From contig OY843592.1 in assembly GCA_963692865.2 (NCBI GenBank), forward strand, positions 3,328,001 through 3,392,000: DNA of 64,000 nt. Direction: 5' to 3'. The translations under genes and the position numbers were made by a program. This document shows positions 1 through 61,378 of this stretch, one piece after another (positions within the stretch are counted from its first letter, which is position 1; every line of letters starts with the position of its first letter). The DNA comes from a bacterium (GTDB lineage Bacteria > UBA8248). The notes under the pieces were generated by a model, which was not told where the DNA came from, ran no database searches, and worked only from the letters and a program-made list of their open reading frames with translations.

Positions 1-352
1 ACTTGATCGCGTTGGTGAAGAGATCGCAGTTCTGGGAGTGATCCCAGTGCAGGTGCGTGAGGATGAGGATGTCCACTTCCTCGGGCTTCCAGCCCGCGCC
101 TTCCAACTGCTCGCGCACGCCCTGGCCGGGCTCCCGGCTCGCGGGCCAGGGGGCGCCGCCGCGTTCGGGGTCGAGAAAACTGGTGTCGACCACGACCTTC
201 ACGTCCTTGCCGTCGTGGTCCTTCGCCCCCTCGATCATGTAGATGAACGAGGGAATCTCGAGCTTTGTCCCGAAGTTCGTCCAATACACCATATTGGAGT
301 AATCCGTATGGATGGTGCCGCAGTTCAGCGGACGGATGGTGAGGTCTGACAT
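1..352 (-). CDS. N-acyl-homoserine-lactonase-family metallo-beta-lactamase-fold hydrolase (runs off the window edge)
   Basis: Not in the ORF track. Manual translation from ATG at 352: MSDLTIRPLNCG...VVVDTSF...DILILTHLHWDHSQNCDLF, containing the HxHxDH motif. Confidence 0.85.
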   Translation of the reverse strand, partial: MSDLTIRPLNCGTIHTDYSNMVYWTNFGTKLEIPSFIYMIEGAKDHDGKDVKVVVDTSFLDPERGGAPWPASREPGQGVREQLEGAGWKPEEVDILILTHLHWDHSQNCDLFTNAIK

Positions 353-470
353 GGAAACTGTTCCTTTCTGCGTTGTTTCGCGGCCCGCAGCGGGGCGCAA
401 ATGAACGATGGCGAATTTGCCTGTTAATCACCGGCCGGGCGTCACGATGCCGGCGAACGGATGTGCGTTT

Positions 471-1070
471 TCAAGCCCGCGCGGTTCTCGCGAAGCGCAC
501 CACCTCCATCAACTCGTCCGGGCCTTCGGGTTCGACCGCGTCGAGGCCGAGCGCCAGATTCAGCCGGTTGCTCATGTTCCGGTACGACACCGAGCCGATG
601 ATGTCCAATATGTTCTCATCTGAGAACCCCGCCTCGCGCAGCGCGTCCAGGTCCGTCTCGCTCATGGCGTAGTGGTCGAACGTGAGTTTTTCGGCGAAGG
701 CGAGCATCGCCTTGTCCGCGTCGTCGAGAGCCGGGGAATTGTCCCTGTCCATCACCACGCCGGCCACGTCGGCCAGCGTTACGTCGTCGCCGCTTTCAGC
801 ACGGAAAGCCTGGCCATGGTTCATCGTTCAGCCGTAGCACCCGCCGATGGTGGCGACGTAGTAGGAGATCAACTCCTCGCGCCTCCCGCCCAGCGTCGAG
901 TTGCCGCCATGAACGGCCATGTTCATCGTCTGGCGTCCGTTCAAAACTTGGGGCCTGCGCGCCATCGTGAGCAACAGCTTGGGCACCGCGCCTCTCTTCG
1001 CCCGGATGCCCTCGAGAATCCCTCTAGCGGGCTCCTGGGCGTCATTCAGCCTTAATGGGGATATCCACAT
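471..1070 (-). CDS. AhpD/carboxymuconolactone-decarboxylase-like peroxidase-related protein, probable selenoprotein (CxxU, TGA at 828-830)
   Basis: ORFs 828..1070 and 471..824 are in one frame, separated by TGA plus one ACG codon. Read-through gives RREELISYYVATIGG-C-Y-G-U-T-M-N-H, matching the AhpD-type E...CxxCxxxH signature; C-terminal half has AMLAFAEKLT and GFSDENILDII. Confidence 0.85.
789..814 (-). promoter_or_regulatory. Candidate bacterial SECIS hairpin downstream of the in-frame UGA
   Basis: mRNA GCC-AG-GCUUUC-CGUGCU-GAAAGC-GGC: 6-bp stem starting 18 nt after UGA, G at loop position 2, plus a 3-bp lower stem; folded by eye. Confidence 0.55.
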
Positions 1071-56345: not shown

Positions 56346-58145
56346 TCACTCACGACCGCGCCCGCCCGGGGCGCTCTTCGAGGGCCACGCGTCGCCGCCC
56401 TGAGCCCGAGCCGCTTCTTCGGAATTCTCCGCAGACAATTCGTCGGGGGAATCATCAAGGGGCGATTCGGCGACCGGAACGATCCCCGGGCCAAGTTCCT
56501 CGAAATCCGCCTCCCCGTCCGGCCCCGCACGCGGAGAGGCGCGCCTGCGCCACCCGTCCCTGATGGAAGGCTTCGGCATGGATCGCGCCATCATCTCGCG
56601 CGCCCCCTGGAAATGGGCGTTCACGGGATTCGAAAAATTCCGGTTCAACGAAACCATCGAGCGCACCAACTCACCCGTGAGGCTCTTGGGCCGGCAGGCG
56701 TTTCCGTTCATGAGAATCGAGAAAGCGAGGATTTCCCCGTTTCGGGCGGCCGCATATCCACTGAAGGCGCGCACGCCGTTCAACACGCCCGTCTTCACCC
56801 GCACCCGGCGCGAATCGACTCCGCGTCGGCGTCTTTTCTTCACCGTCCCGTCTACGCCGAACACGGCCAGCGACGCCATGAACTCGGGCCGCAGCCTGAA
56901 ATCGTTGTGCGCCGCTTCGAGCAGAAGCGCCAGAGCGCGCGGCGAGGCGCGGTTCATCCTGCTCAGGCCCGAACCGTCGGCGAGGGCGATCTCTTTCGCA
57001 GAGACTCCGGTGGAGATCAGGAAATCCCGCACGACGCGCAGGCCTTTTTCCGCCGTACCCGGCGCGCCGTGCGCTTCGGCGCCCATCGTCTTGAGAACCT
57101 GCTCGGCCACGAAATTGTTGCTGAACTTGTTGAGTCCGGTCACCACCTCGCTCAGGGGCGGCGAGAGGTTTCGCGCGAGAAGCTTCGCATCCGGCGGCGT
57201 GGCGGCCCGCCGGATTCCGCCCTTCAAGGCGATTCCCTGCCTTTCGAGTTCGACAGCGACCGCGCCGGCGGTGAAGGCGGTGGGGTCCGTAACGGGCACC
57301 CGATACAGCTTCATCCTCTTCCCCGCCGGAAACAAGCCGCTAATCTGCACGACATCCTTTCCTTTGGAGCGCCTGCGCCCGAGCCGGATTCTCAAGCTCC
57401 TGCGCGAGGTCTTCACCCTCGCATGGAGACGAAGCGCGCGCGAGGGCGGCTCGAGATTCGCCAAAGCCTGCGTACCGACCCCATCTCCCGGAGCCACGAG
57501 CACGTTCGCCGAACCAAAATTCAGGGACAAGGCCCCGTGCGGGGCCAGATACGGCCGGATGGAGCGGCCCACGCGCCACCCGCGCCCATGCTTCTTGTCG
57601 TCGAAAAACGCATCGTCCGCCACCAGATCGCCCTCGATGCGCCTTACGCCGCGCAGCTTGAGGCGGCGAACGAAGTCGCGCATCCTTTCATGCACGAAAA
57701 GCGGATCACCGTAGCCCTTGAGATAAAGGTCTCCCCGCAGGACGCCGCCTCGAACCTTGCCCTTCGCGTAGAAATCGGTGGCGAAGCGGTAGTCCGGCCC
57801 CAGGCGCGCGAGCGCGGCGGCGGCGATGAACAGCTTCACGTTCGACGCAGGAATCCGCTTTGTGGCGGCATTATGGGAGTAGAGCGTCTGCGCTGTGGAA
57901 ACCGAGCGAATGTAAAGGCCCAGGCGTCCGGGGCGGGCGCATTGCCTCTTGAGGGCGCGCCTTACCCTGGCCTGGAAGGCGGCCTTCGAGACGATGCCTT
58001 TTTTTGAAGCGATTCTTTTGTTCGGAGCGCGCCTTTTTCTTGCGGCGAGGGCGTCCGAGGAGCACAAGGCGATGAGGCACAAAACAATCGCCCATAGGGA
58101 AAATCTCAAAAACCGGCCCGCTGAATCCTGTCCCATGATTCTCAT
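56346..58145 (-). CDS. dacB: D-Ala-D-Ala carboxypeptidase/endopeptidase (PBP4)
   Basis: Signal peptide, ASNVK (SxxK), GYGDP, FSNN (SxN), DGSGLSR, KTG; low-complexity C-terminal tail. Confidence 0.92.
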   Translation of the reverse strand: MRIMGQDSAGRFLRFSLWAIVLCLIALCSSDALAARKRRAPNKRIASKKGIVSKAAFQARVRRALKRQCARPGRLGLYIRSVSTAQTLYSHNAATKRIPASNVKLFIAAAALARLGPDYRFATDFYAKGKVRGGVLRGDLYLKGYGDPLFVHERMRDFVRRLKLRGVRRIEGDLVADDAFFDDKKHGRGWRVGRSIRPYLAPHGALSLNFGSANVLVAPGDGVGTQALANLEPPSRALRLHARVKTSRRSLRIRLGRRRSKGKDVVQISGLFPAGKRMKLYRVPVTDPTAFTAGAVAVELERQGIALKGGIRRAATPPDAKLLARNLSPPLSEVVTGLNKFSNNFVAEQVLKTMGAEAHGAPGTAEKGLRVVRDFLISTGVSAKEIALADGSGLSRMNRASPRALALLLEAAHNDFRLRPEFMASLAVFGVDGTVKKRRRRGVDSRRVRVKTGVLNGVRAFSGYAAARNGEILAFSILMNGNACRPKSLTGELVRSMVSLNRNFSNPVNAHFQGAREMMARSMPKPSIRDGWRRRASPRAGPDGEADFEELGPGIVPVAESPLDDSPDELSAENSEEAARAQGGDAWPSKSAPGGRGRE

Positions 58146-58193
58146 ATTCGGTGTCCGTCACGCGCCGGGCGGGGGCGGGAATACCGGGTATTC

Positions 58194-58751
58194 TCACAAA
58201 AAAGCGAGAGCCTGCATCACTTGCTGAACCGACGGGCGGTCACTGGGATATTTGCCCACGTGAACGTAGCGAACCACGCCGTTCTTGTCGATGATGAAAG
58301 TGGCGGGCCGGGCGATATCCTCTCTCGGATGAAGCACCCCGTATTGCTTGATAATTCGCTTCTTCGCGTCCGATATCAGGAGATACCGAATGCCCAATTC
58401 CCGCGTCGTCTTGTTCATCTCGAGCGCGTTGTCCGCGCTGACGGCGATGATTTCGGCCTGAAGCCCGTGAATTTTCCCTGAAAATCGTTGGAACTCGACG
58501 AGTTGCCGTTGGCAGATGACTCAGAAATGACCCCGATAAAAGATCATCAAGAGGTTCTTCTTGCCCTTGAGATCGGACAGCTTGAAGCCCTGGATTTCAA
58601 ACGCATGCGCCTTATCCCCCACCTTGGGACGATTCTCATCGAAAGGCGCTGCAGCCGCTCCATCCACGCTCATCACGCTCATGAGGAGGAAAGCGAGCGC
58701 CGTCGCCGCCGGGCGCAAAGCTCGCCTGAAAGAAAACCTGCACCATCTCAT
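58194..58751 (-). CDS. Exported AhpC/TSA (peroxiredoxin-like, thioredoxin-fold) protein, probable selenoprotein (UxxC, TGA at 58521-58523)
   Basis: Read-through joins two ORF-track fragments in frame: PKVGDKA...LSDLKGKKNLLMIFYRGHF-U-VIC-QRQLVEFQ...EIIAVSAD...LISD...YGV...ARPATFIIDKNGVVRY; GGAGGG RBS before ATG 58751. Confidence 0.88.
58490..58507 (-). promoter_or_regulatory. Candidate bacterial SECIS hairpin
   Basis: mRNA GG-C-AACUC-GUC-GAGUU-CC; loop begins with G, 21 nt after UGA; folded by eye. Confidence 0.5.
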
Positions 58752-58879
58752 CGGGGAAACCCTCCGGGTCATCAAGTCGAAAAACACCGCCGGGTCGAAT
58801 CTTAATCCGCCCGGAGCGGGCTGTAAACCATTCGGACGCGCCGCATTGACGATAAGAGGCGGCGTATGCGAATCTCCAA

Positions 58880-60454
58880 ATGTCTCCCGCCCGCCGGTAT
58901 GATCAGGTGAGAAACCAATCGCTTGCTCTTGTAGTTCTCATGCTGGCGTGCGCGAGTTTATACGCCTGCGGGGAAAATCGCTCAACGAAAGGCGACGCCA
59001 TCGTCGTCGGCATCGGAACCAACCCCACGCAACTCGACCCGAGGCTGGCGCAAGACGCCGTCTCCTCCAAGCTGCTGCGCTTCGTCTTCAGCCGCCTGAT
59101 ATCAAAGGACCACGAGGGCCGCACCGTCCTGGAACTCGCCGAGAAGTGGGAGCGGCCCACGCCCCTCGTTCACCGCTTCGAACTCAGGCGCGGGGTACGG
59201 TTCCACAACGGAGAAGCCCTCACCTCATCGGACGTGAAATACACCTTCGACTCCATACGCGACCCCTCGCTCGCCTCCCCCAAAGCGGCGGGACTTAAAG
59301 AGCTCGCGCGCATCGAAACGCCCACGCCGCACAGTGTCGTCTTTCATCTCAAGGAACCTTCCGCCTCGTTCGCGGAATCCCTCATGGTCGGCATACTCCC
59401 CAAAAGCGCGCGCGAAACGGGGAGCCGCTTCGCCCACAAACCCGTCGGCGCCGGTCCGTTTCAGTTCGTGGAATTCACGCCGGACGAGCGAATCACCTTA
59501 AAAGCGTTCGCTGGCCACTTCGCCGGCAAGCCCGCTTATGAGCGCCTCATCTTCCGGATTCTTCCCGAGGAGACCATCCGCGTCCTGGAACTAGAAAGCG
59601 GCGGGGTCGACTTCCTCCAGAACGCTTTCTCGCCCGACGTTTTGCCGCGCCTCATCAAAAACAAGCGGCTCAGGATACGAAAGCGCCTGGGGACGAACTT
59701 CAGCTATATCGGCTTCAACATGAGCGACCCGATTCTCTCCAAACTCGAGGTGCGGCGCGCGATAGCCCACGCCATCGACAGGCGGCCCATCGTGCGCTTC
59801 ATCCACAAGGGTCTCGTCCAGGAGGCGGACAGCCTGCTGCCCCCCGATCACTGGGCGCACCGAAGAGGTCTCCCAAGCTACGCGCACGACCCGGCCCTCG
59901 CAGTGAAACTCCTCGATGCGGCGGGCTATCCCGACCCCGACGGGCCGGGGCCTCGCCCGCGCTTTACGCTCGTCTACAAAACCTCGCAAAACGAGCTTGG
60001 CCGCCGCATCGCCACCGTGTTCGGCCATCAACTCGCCCGCGTGGGAATCAAGATGAAAATCCGCTCCTATGAGTGGGGCACGTTTTTCGGCGACGTCAGA
60101 AACGGGAACTTCCAGCTCTACAGCCTGACGTGGGTCGGCATATCGGACCCCGACATCTACCGCTACATCTTTCACAGCCGCTTCACCCCGCCGGCGGGCC
60201 TCAACCGCGGCCTCTACAAAAACGCGCGCGTGGACGCGCTTCTGGAAGAAGCCCACCAGTCCGATGACCCCGAGATTCGCGCCCGCGCCTACGGCGAGAC
60301 GCAGCGCATCCTGAGCGAGGAGCTCCCCTACATCAACCTGTGGCACAGCGTGAACGTGGCCGTCTTCGACAAGCGCATATCGGGCTATCGGGTATATCCG
60401 GATGCGGATTTCATCTCACTGGCGAAAGCGACTCTTTCACCCCTGGCGGAGTGA
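58880..60454 (+). CDS. Peptide/nickel (family 5) ABC substrate-binding lipoprotein
   Basis: Lipobox LYAC, LDP, LRRGVRFHNG, DVKYTF, VGAGPF, VRRAIAHAIDR; start may be GTG 58907. Confidence 0.9.
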   Translation: MSPARRYDQVRNQSLALVVLMLACASLYACGENRSTKGDAIVVGIGTNPTQLDPRLAQDAVSSKLLRFVFSRLISKDHEGRTVLELAEKWERPTPLVHRFELRRGVRFHNGEALTSSDVKYTFDSIRDPSLASPKAAGLKELARIETPTPHSVVFHLKEPSASFAESLMVGILPKSARETGSRFAHKPVGAGPFQFVEFTPDERITLKAFAGHFAGKPAYERLIFRILPEETIRVLELESGGVDFLQNAFSPDVLPRLIKNKRLRIRKRLGTNFSYIGFNMSDPILSKLEVRRAIAHAIDRRPIVRFIHKGLVQEADSLLPPDHWAHRRGLPSYAHDPALAVKLLDAAGYPDPDGPGPRPRFTLVYKTSQNELGRRIATVFGHQLARVGIKMKIRSYEWGTFFGDVRNGNFQLYSLTWVGISDPDIYRYIFHSRFTPPAGLNRGLYKNARVDALLEEAHQSDDPEIRARAYGETQRILSEELPYINLWHSVNVAVFDKRISGYRVYPDADFISLAKATLSPLAE

Positions 60455-60457
60455 TAG

Positions 60458-61378
60458 ATGCGGAAATTCCTCTTAAGGCGCGTTTTGCTGCTCATCCCCG
60501 TCCTGTGGGGGGTGACGACGCTCGTCTTCATCGTCACGCAGGTGCTGCCGGGCGACCCGGTGGACCTCATGCTGGGCGAGACCGCCCGCCCGGCACAGCG
60601 CGAACAACTGCGCAAGACACTCGGGCTGGACAGGCCCATCGGCGTTCAATACGCCGAATACATGGGCGGGCTCCTGCGGGGAGACCTGGGGAATTCACTC
60701 CACCAGAAACGAGCGGTCTCGGCCATCATCTTCGAGCGCACCTACGCTTCGGCGGAACTCACGCTCGCCTCGATGGCCGTTGCGCTGCTCATCTCGCTTC
60801 CGCTGGGAATCGCCGCGGCGCGAAGACAGGGCACGGCGCTCGACCTGGGGGCGGGCTTTCTCGCCGTGGCGGGGGCGAGCATGCCCGTATTCTGGCTCGG
60901 GCCGCTGCTCATCATCGTCTTCTCCATCGGGCTGGGCTGGCTGCCCGTCTCGGGTCGGGAAGGTAGTTTCAGCCTCGTCCTCCCGGCCGTGACGCTCGGC
61001 GCTGCGCTCTCACCGATATTGATGCGCATGACGCGCTCGAGCCTTCTGGAAGTGCTGCCGCAAGACTACATCGCCGCGGCGCGGGCGAAGGGCATCTCGG
61101 AGAGGCGGGTGCTCTGGCTCCACGCGCTCAAGAACGCGTGCCTGCCGCTCATCACCATCCTCAGCCTCCAGCTCGGCGCCCTGCTCTCCGGCGCGATTAT
61201 CACCGAGACCGTCTTCGCCTGGCCCGGCGTGGGGCGGCTGGTGATCCAGGCCATCGCCGCACGCGACTACCCTCTCGTGCAGGGTTGCGTGCTGTTCATC
61301 GCCGCCGTCTACGTGAGCGCGAACTTTCTGGCCGACGTCGCCTACGCCTGGCTGGACCCGCGCGTGAGGCTCACATGA
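60458..61378 (+). CDS. Peptide/nickel ABC permease, DppB-like
   Basis: PGDP, GLDRP, GDLGNS, ARAKG, ETVFAWPGVG, RDYP, DPRV. Confidence 0.92.
   Translation: MRKFLLRRVLLLIPVLWGVTTLVFIVTQVLPGDPVDLMLGETARPAQREQLRKTLGLDRPIGVQYAEYMGGLLRGDLGNSLHQKRAVSAIIFERTYASAELTLASMAVALLISLPLGIAAARRQGTALDLGAGFLAVAGASMPVFWLGPLLIIVFSIGLGWLPVSGREGSFSLVLPAVTLGAALSPILMRMTRSSLLEVLPQDYIAAARAKGISERRVLWLHALKNACLPLITILSLQLGALLSGAIITETVFAWPGVGRLVIQAIAARDYPLVQGCVLFIAAVYVSANFLADVAYAWLDPRVRLT

Follow-up and report, generated by a model that had tools for sequence, protein, structure and literature searches.

We describe a gene on the minus strand of a 64,000-nucleotide (nt) stretch of bacterial DNA (GTDB lineage UBA8248; GenBank assembly GCA_963692865.2, contig OY843592.1, positions 3,328,001 to 3,392,000 of the forward strand; hereafter the window) whose reading frame is interrupted by a TGA, at window positions 58521-58523, that very probably encodes selenocysteine (Sec, U). 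We are fairly confident that the product is a selenoprotein of about 150 residues with a peroxiredoxin (Prx) fold, exported by the secretory (Sec) pathway, that acts through a U77-V-I-C80 site as a selenol/thiol oxidoreductase.

With the TGA translated as U, the coding sequence (CDS) comprises 185 codons from an ATG at 58749-58751 and ends at a second TGA (58194-58196) just outside it. The codons around the site read TTT TAT CGG GGT CAT TTC TGA GTC ATC TGC, which places U at residue 77 of an F-Y-R-G-H-F-U-V-I-C motif with 108 residues C-terminal of it. The original prediction, made from the sequence alone, had given this motif, Sec77, the 108 open codons and the coordinates, all of which are exact on the minus strand. 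We take the ATG as the start in preference to the GTG at 58787, because the orthologues share the position of their M-R-W start; a Shine-Dalgarno-like GGAGGG lies 8 nt upstream of it. The genome has a G+C content of 61%, and open flanks around a TGA are uninformative in so G+C-rich a window, since 113 of its in-frame TGAs are flanked on both sides by 40 or more open codons. This site is set apart from chance by a single Pfam domain that spans the TGA, together with its Cys/Sec alignment and its conservation. AhpC-TSA (PF00578) matches residues 45-163, across U77, with an E-value of 2.4e-26 (92.6 bits against a cut-off of 26), and Redoxin matches residues 44-178, also spanning residue 77 (2e-20).

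In Cys-containing homologues from other lineages the same columns read F-Y-R-G-H-W-C-P-H-C, and U77 pairs with the first Cys of C-P-H-C. A profile search of 1.84 billion representatives returned 126 proteins at E<=1e-30, a number that rises to 7402 at E<=1e-10. Among the 20 matches that we inspected, the full-length proteins carry [F/L]-Y-R-x-x-[W/F]-C-x-x-C, and two others, of 99 and 109 amino acids, are fragments that begin at or past the motif, as expected of mis-called Sec forms.

The TGA itself is conserved across the lineage. A six-frame search of 60 relatives gave a match at E<=1e-10 in 46, and the best match contains exactly one in-frame TGA in 44 of these; the two exceptions, G025 and G048, match from residue 54 onward only (6e-17 and 1e-12) and look like paralogues. 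We read through 46 copies from 43 relatives, three of them second copies, which represent 21 of the 22 members of the same genus, eight plus five members of the same family, two of other families in the order and seven of another family in the class. The copy of one genus member, split across contig ends, was left out of this reading, and three sequences of other Prx families (L072-L074) were excluded from the count. Every one of the 46 copies has TGA at the U77 column, in a motif U-[V/G/S/A/R/P]-x-C, and none of them contains a further stop or a frameshift. Identity to the window's protein falls to ~29% among the sequences of the alignment, A2, used for structure prediction. The usual Pro had been noted as missing after the first redox residue; this holds for the primary orthologues, where the residue is V, G, S, A or R, but two distant paralogues keep the Pro. 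Two of the excluded sequences, L073 (G041:C88:722-1744) and L074 (G044:C1:4955502-4956632), both from distant relatives, are a different exported Prx reading F-Y-V-L-D-F-T-P-G-TGA, in which the TGA occupies the peroxidatic position as in peroxiredoxin selenoproteins of the classical TxxU type.

Downstream of the UGA, the transcript contains a hairpin resembling a selenocysteine insertion sequence (SECIS), GGCAACUC-GUC-GAGUUCC, whose G-initiated loop lies 21 nt 3' of the UGA at the distance first proposed. Five Watson-Crick pairs close the G-U-C loop, and two G-C pairs follow past a bulged or mismatched C. In an alignment of 46 distinct sequences (47 copies less one duplicate row), loop residues G31 and U32 are invariant; pair 27:37 is AU in 24 sequences, GC in 21 and GU in one, with no mismatch, and pair 30:34 is CG in 28, GC in 7, UG in 3 and unpaired in 8. 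Paired cells make up 89.1% of the total, versus 13.7-45.7% after a shift of the 3' side by 1-3 columns; the observed covariation score was reached by none of 500 shuffles, and RNAalifold, unaided, predicts the identical five-pair helix. At 27:37 the covariation couples the third position of a Gln codon (CAA/CAG, a synonymous change) to a first position whose change replaces Phe with Leu, and at 30:34 it couples a synonymous site in a Leu codon to a change between Glu and Gln; the pairings are not accounted for by coding alone. [quoted passage not shown] The loop, stem and spacing of the window's hairpin agree with these values (G-U-C; five plus two pairs; 21 nt), and the apical loop is 3 nt long, or 5 nt long in the form N1-G-U-N-N2, in which N1 pairs with N2. 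Comparably small hairpins follow other TGA sites in the genome at similar distances.

The genome (4.15 Mb in 8 contigs, 97.4% complete, 6.7% contamination) encodes a complete Sec-decoding machinery, and the absence of selABCD that the original prediction had named as a ground for refutation therefore does not apply. We identified selB (391.7 bits, cut-off 242), an adjoining selA (567.2 bits, cut-off 268), selD (334.6 bits, above its cut-off), which itself carries one in-frame TGA, and tRNA-Sec (76.7 bits against a gathering score of 47). The tRNA gene is present in two copies of equal score on contigs C1 and C4, both of which ARAGORN identifies as tRNA-SeC with anticodon TCA. The first locus, L017 (G000:C1:1207504-1207596), is on the main contig and the second, L018 (G000:C4:29719-29811), on a contig of 50 kb; they could represent a true duplication or, given the 6.7% contamination, a duplicated or contaminant contig.

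We modeled the protein with AlphaFold2 on the 39 rows of alignment A2. The mean predicted local distance difference test (pLDDT) score is 90.3, with values of 96-98 in the globular part from residue 41 on. A strand (66-71) leads through a loop (72-77) into a helix (78-89), after which strands and helices alternate as in thioredoxin-like folds. The active-site helix thus has U77 at its N terminus and C80 within the first turn. The best Foldseek matches in the PDB are Bcp4 (3hjp; E 1.8e-13, TMt 0.84), AhpE (1xvw/4x1u, TMt 0.87) and typical 2-Cys peroxiredoxins; as these structures are peroxiredoxins and not TlpA-like proteins, we rejected membership of the TlpA/ResA type. BCP/PrxQ, AhpE and the typical 2-Cys peroxiredoxins thus provide the best structural and PDB sequence matches, but the window protein reads R-G-H-F-U-V-I-C where these proteins have their PxxxTxxC signature, which is not kept. 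When aligned to PRDX3 by phmmer, F-Y-R-G-H-F-U-V-I-C falls on F-Y-P-L-D-F-T-F-V-C, such that C80 lines up with the peroxidatic Cys, U77 with the conserved Thr and Arg73 with the conserved Pro. The catalytic Arg is likewise displaced: R148 is located one position away from it, and some A2 sequences have K or H in place of R148. The description of the protein as peroxiredoxin-like in the original prediction is therefore borne out for the fold and not for the catalytic signature. The residues invariant in A2 are F71, R73, G74, U77, C80, Q83, S105, D107, D128, P149 and G158. Pro149 lies in an R-P motif and is presumably the site of the cis-Pro that stands opposite the CxxC motif in thioredoxin folds.

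The N terminus has the organization of a signal peptide, with five Arg residues in the n-region, a hydrophobic h-region, AATALAFLLMSVMSV, and a c-region, DGAAA, followed by APFDENRP; cleavage is likely just before the latter, at AAA/AP. A hydrophobic 12-mer (Kyte-Doolittle >1.8) follows a net-positive start in 45 of the 47 copies, and the AlphaFold2 model places an N-terminal helix (12-26) of low pLDDT apart from the globular domain. Several of the Cys homologues also have lipoprotein or signal sequences. The S-F-R-R-A-L-R stretch raised the possibility of Tat export, which we rejected on the grounds that the orthologues have K-R or other residues there. Export, already suggested in the original prediction, and its probable course through the Sec pathway are thus predictions from heuristic features of this kind.

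These features suggest the following course for the protein. During translation, the hairpin with its G-U loop 21 nt downstream would recruit SelB with Sec-tRNA(Sec) to UGA77, at which Sec would be inserted. The signal peptide would then carry the protein across the inner membrane and be cleaved near AAA/AP. Judging from the fold model and from what is known of the family, U77 would sit where thioredoxin-fold proteins of the CxxC type have their attacking Cys; its selenolate could attack an oxidized substrate in the cell envelope, and C80 would resolve the adduct to leave an intramolecular selenenylsulfide. The U77-C80 pair would subsequently be re-reduced, the likely reductant being a membrane electron carrier of the CcdA/DsbD type, for which the genome contains a candidate elsewhere (DsbD_TM/CcdA-type, 30.5 and 24 bits in one 342-codon frame). 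As a candidate activity, we favor a thiol/selenol-disulfide (or sulfenate) reductase over a classical peroxidase, because the Pro/Thr signature of peroxiredoxins is absent, the geometry is of the CxxC type, Pro149 is invariant and the literature classifies comparable proteins in this way.

Several observations weigh against this reading of the gene. The local energy of the window's hairpin is -5.6 kcal/mol, short of the published cut-off of -7.5 or lower, which only 18 of the 47 copies reach when the energy is computed strictly over the named pairs; a C-C mismatch or bulge weakens the stem in the window's genus, and orthologues outside that genus mostly do reach the cut-off. The 60-nt MFE is -10.5, but it belongs to a different fold, and the 91 nt after the TGA fold no better than shuffles (z +0.82). 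The conserved peptide Q-L-V-E/Q-F/L accounts in part for the nucleotide conservation of the hairpin, and the relatives compared are not independent of one another, such that fewer independent events lie behind the cell counts than their size suggests. With no gain in energy over shuffles, the hairpin is argued from its conservation and covariation and not from its stability. No NCBIfam model reaches its cut-off on the protein, the best scores being 63.7 against 120 for SelL_rel_redox (NF040769), 49.4 against 272 for AhpC and 47.5 against 170 for ResA. The peroxiredoxin models among them all fall far short, and no curated equivalog can accommodate the protein. The heuristic nature of the export prediction counts here as well, as do the peroxiredoxins found as best matches in both sequence and structure, the alignment of C80 on their peroxidatic Cys and the location of R148 beside their catalytic Arg.

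The last three of these points would favor the same selenoprotein being mainly a periplasmic peroxidase, in which U77 is oxidized by H2O2, an organic hydroperoxide or peroxynitrite to a selenenic acid that C80 resolves before a reductant recycles the pair. Sec-containing peroxiredoxins are indeed known (PMC13188914). The same source gives their signature as PxxxTxxC/U, from which the window protein departs with Arg73 for Pro and U77 for Thr; R148, moreover, is variable, and UxxC selenoproteins of PF00578 are tabulated as thiol:disulfide oxidoreductases both there and in PMC1794560. We therefore give the peroxidase a modest chance and regard it as rather unlikely to be the principal role.

The oxidoreductase that we favor finds close counterparts among described selenoproteins. 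A table in PMC13188914 lists a 'Prx-like thiol:disulfide oxidoreductase' of PF00578 with UxxC or UxxU motifs and one or two Sec residues as 'predicted with high confidence'; Table 2 of PMC2398784 lists a 'Prx-like 1' family (pfam00578, UxxC) with 225 sequences from the Global Ocean Sampling; and PMC1794560 lists a UxxC Prx-like family for Geobacter, Syntrophus and Desulfotalea. The window protein shares with these selenoproteins the PF00578 domain, a UxxC motif that pairs with CxxC, a downstream SECIS-like hairpin and a Sec-decoding host, and differs from them in its predicted signal peptide. It and its orthologues also read F-U-[V/G/S]-x-C, with no Trp before U and no Pro after it, whereas the Cys homologues and a cytoplasmic UxxC paralogue read W-C/U-P-x-C; identity to this paralogue, the canonical W-U-P-Y-C protein of the same genome, is 25% (E 2e-10). 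The best reading of these comparisons is that the gene encodes a putative new exported member of the established UxxC Prx-like selenoprotein family, a result that would not surprise a specialist. This assignment was made from domain and motif descriptions and from the comparison with the genome's own paralogue.

The widespread Cys-type redoxins with the motif FYRGxWCPxC, which we take to be the PRX_like2 group of CDD (cd02970), have a common fold with the window protein and the same invariant F-Y-R-G...C-x-x-C...S-x-D...P...G core, and many of them are likewise exported or lipoproteins. They differ in having Cys where the window protein has Sec and in retaining Trp and Pro around this first Cys. 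Some of the Cys-type homologues are multidomain proteins: P0017 (1430 amino acids), P0019-P0021, P0023 and P0024 contain two to six tandem copies of the domain, and P0021 and P0019 repeat F-Y-R-x-x-[F/W]-C-x-x-C sites. The SelL-related redox proteins (NF040769) provide the top-scoring NCBIfam model and resemble the window protein in the region of their Prx-like redox motif. The SelL motif is UxxU, and the window protein has one Sec, not two; with a score of 63.7 bits against a cut-off of 120, we rejected membership of this group. Eukaryotic SelL is itself described as Prx-like in PMC2398784.

In the literature retrieved on selenoproteins or selenocysteine in Nitrospina/Nitrospin, we found no description of this protein. 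The main text of the BSepDB paper (PMC13326102) does not name the family, and the accessible part of the preprint 10.1101/2022.07.06.499078 contains nothing on it.

A broader interpretation is that the protein may be a lineage-wide, obligately selenium-dependent redox enzyme of the cell envelope, that is, an exported Prx-fold subfamily with a non-canonical F-U-x-x-C site lacking Trp and Pro and with a dedicated periplasmic function outside the classical Dsb systems. We observed no reversion of Sec to Cys in any of the 44 genomes with a copy read, the window's own included. Under this interpretation, the gene would be kept beside a peptide-type ABC importer and a PBP4-type peptidase, and examples of its role would be the selenol reduction of disulfide-bonded peptides before import or the removal of peroxide or peroxynitrite from the envelope. 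Taken as a whole we consider this interpretation speculative and improbable.

Far less probable still is that the TGA is an ordinary stop in a split or decaying gene, which would then yield an N-terminal peptide of 76 residues and perhaps a C-terminal product of its own. Such a stop might seem to be indicated by public annotation: the six closest clusters in a collection of 5.8 billion proteins, 88-90% identical, are all 107-108 amino acids long and begin with M-(I)-C-Q-R-Q-L immediately 3' of the TGA, and one of them is labelled 'MAG: peroxiredoxin family protein [Nitrospinae bacterium]' by its source (MAG, metagenome-assembled genome). Gene callers thus predict only these C-terminal pieces, and the number of open-flanked TGAs in the window and the thermodynamic weakness of its hairpin point in the same direction. 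The same fragments, which set in just past the TGA, are equally what a mis-called selenoprotein would leave. In the window's copy, however, the codon directly 3' of the TGA is GTC, which is not a start codon, and an ordinary stop fits poorly with a TGA that occupies the same column in 46 of 46 copies, with no other stop or frameshift down to ~29% identity, and that aligns on the catalytic Cys of homologues. Selection argues to the same effect. We compared the window's gene with its 21 same-genus orthologues by the Nei-Gojobori method and found a median ratio of nonsynonymous to synonymous substitution rates (dN/dS) of 0.077 over the 40 codons 5' of the TGA (one pair being undefined because dS is saturated) and of 0.17 over the 108 codons 3' of it. 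As both values are well below 1, each half is under purifying selection; both halves appear to be translated and are constrained, with no sign of the downstream pseudogene decay that had been raised as an objection. Together with the spanning domain, the Cys homologues, the invariant TGA column, the covarying hairpin and the Sec machinery, these ratios uphold the placement of Sec77 in a redoxin of thioredoxin/peroxiredoxin fold.

We assign a similarly slim chance to the recoding of UGA as Cys, Trp or Gly by a non-Sec tRNA or a variant genetic code. The identity of the inserted residue is not decidable from sequence alone, which leaves this reading some room, but the gene's own terminator is TGA and TGA is therefore not a general sense codon here. 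A canonical tRNA-Sec with anticodon TCA, selA, selB and selD are all present, and TGA sits at a redox-motif position in seven AhpC-TSA matches as well as in selD of the same genome.

The DNA support consists of assembled contigs. Four runs, from one study and three samples, cover the stretch at 0.97-1.00 of sampled words; the run with an identical contig over the whole stretch may be its source, and run X5, from a more distant relative, is not counted. For a sequencing or assembly error in the TGA we found no point in favor, and with contig pieces from two other samples covering the codon at 0 differences and the same codon present in independent assemblies of 43 other genomes, an error can for practical purposes be dismissed. 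Several short contigs match over only 35-40 nt (window 58488-58526, a segment with the TGA, the codon for the Cys and the hairpin's 5' arm) and then diverge on both sides; they are likely paralogues or other organisms with the same conserved core.

The genome as a whole appears to be rich in selenoproteins, as had been proposed. Among its matches to a few Pfam families, an in-frame TGA occurs in 7 of 13 for AhpC-TSA, in 11 of 22 for CMD/AhpD-like, in 1 of 5 for Thioredoxin and in the single match (1 of 1) for Rdx/SelW-like; with the one in selD and the window's other candidate (474-1070, below), the genome has at least 22 TGA-bearing redox-family matches. When the seven TGA-bearing AhpC-TSA matches are read through, the TGA sits at the redox motif in all of them; they are the present gene, the tandem pair at L087, the redoxin at L088 and the three G-A-I-T-U-P-P paralogues, all described below. 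A scan for open-flanked TGAs, with its 113 hits in the window, was too unspecific to extend to the whole genome, and the scan that the original prediction had envisaged was therefore carried out within these few families; residue-by-residue inspection covered the AhpC-TSA set, selD and the two genes of the window. With at least 22 such matches, the thiol-redox network of the organism is probably selenium-dependent in large part. In Table 2 of PMC13326102, MAGs labelled Nitrospinota or Nitrospinaceae, which that paper assigns to GTDB phylum UBA8248, figure with 48-54 genes in the top ten of bacteria by selenoprotein richness; these MAGs serve here as a comparison only.

Because the close relatives in the large protein collection exist only as 107-108-amino-acid C-terminal fragments, the gene being routinely cut in two by gene callers, deposited annotations show neither the true product nor its signal peptide and catalytic residue. 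The probable selenium dependence bears on the trace-element needs and the ecology of the lineage, and a UxxC redoxin that is exported and has stayed Sec across the lineage offers a convenient natural case in which to consider the benefit of selenium in an oxidizing cell envelope. Current understanding is not overturned, UxxC Prx-like selenoproteins having been catalogued since the mid-2000s (PMC1794560, PMC2398784).

Table 1. Positions in the window of the selenoprotein gene, its sequence elements and the adjacent genes.
Feature	Position	Strand	Evidence
Selenoprotein CDS, 185 codons	58197..58751	-	Translation with TGA as U, Pfam, orthologue starts
In-frame TGA, read as Sec77 of U-V-I-C	58521..58523	-	Cys alignment, 46/46 copies, contigs
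SECIS-like hairpin GGCAACUC-GUC-GAGUUCC	58490..58507	-	Alignment of 46 distinct sequences, RNAalifold
Signal-peptide-like N terminus, residues 1-34	58650..58751	-	Heuristic features, 45/47 copies
Shine-Dalgarno-like GGAGGG	58760..58765	-	Read from sequence
Sigma-70-like promoter match	58799..58827	-	Consensus scan, weak
Peptidase_S13 (PBP4-type D-Ala-D-Ala carboxypeptidase)	56346..58145	-	Pfam 9.8e-93
SBP_bac_5 solute-binding protein	58880..60454	+	Pfam 5.4e-79
ABC permease	60458..61378	+	Pfam 2.9e-42; next after SBP_bac_5 gene

The positions of the gene and its surroundings are collected in Table 1. The Peptidase_S13 gene begins 51 nt 3' of the redoxin stop on the same strand and is followed by RecJ; we found no terminator-like site in 58050-58950 and hence none between the redoxin and S13 genes. 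The S13 neighbor is present in all 30 family-level loci (the window's own included) and the divergent SBP_bac_5 neighbor in 29 of them, the thirtieth being truncated by a contig end. Among nine loci of primary orthologues from more distant orders and families, SBP_bac_5 is retained in eight, and S13 is adjacent in two and further off in two more; three paralogue loci have neither neighbor. Both neighbors are envelope proteins, which fits an exported redoxin, but as all of these loci come from relatives within one class we treat the synteny as a lead only. The promoter match, TTTACA-17 nt-TAAGAT, lies in the divergent intergenic region, where the consensus scan gave one site against 0.4 expected from shuffles, which is weak evidence.

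A second TGA-interrupted gene lies at the other end of the window, on the minus strand at 474-1070, and is probably the other TGA-for-Cys site that the original prediction had counted within the 64 kb. Its TGA (828-830) falls within a 199-codon read-through at a G-C-Y-G-U (CxxU) motif; the CMD/AhpD-like Pfam match is weak (24.8 bits against a cut-off of 23), and the gene is missing from the list of the own-genome CMD scan. The CMD/AhpD-like set, with its 11 TGA-bearing members, is an unusually large paralogous group of candidate CxxU selenoproteins.

Two tandem cytoplasmic Prx-like paralogues are encoded at locus L087 (G000:C1:487200-489200; 305-844 and 989-1489, both minus strand). One reads Y-R-G-H-W-U-P-Y-C and the other Y-R-S-H-W-U-P-Y-U, with two TGAs three codons apart that would make a possible diselenide motif; UxxU forms of the Prx-like family are mentioned in PMC13188914 and PMC2398784. 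At locus L088 (G000:C1:2096500-2097800; 308-892, minus strand) we observe another exported redoxin with a signal-like N terminus and the motif W-T-F-A-U-I-N-C (AhpC-TSA 58.5 bits, Redoxin 49.2 bits). Three further paralogues carry G-A-I-T-U-P-P-[F/Y] (G000:C1:3161091-3161504, minus strand; 2801951-2802358, plus strand; and 1395045-1395458, minus strand), a motif that we take to resemble that of deiodinase-like selenoproteins, and each is followed on its 3' side by a small hairpin with a GGU loop.

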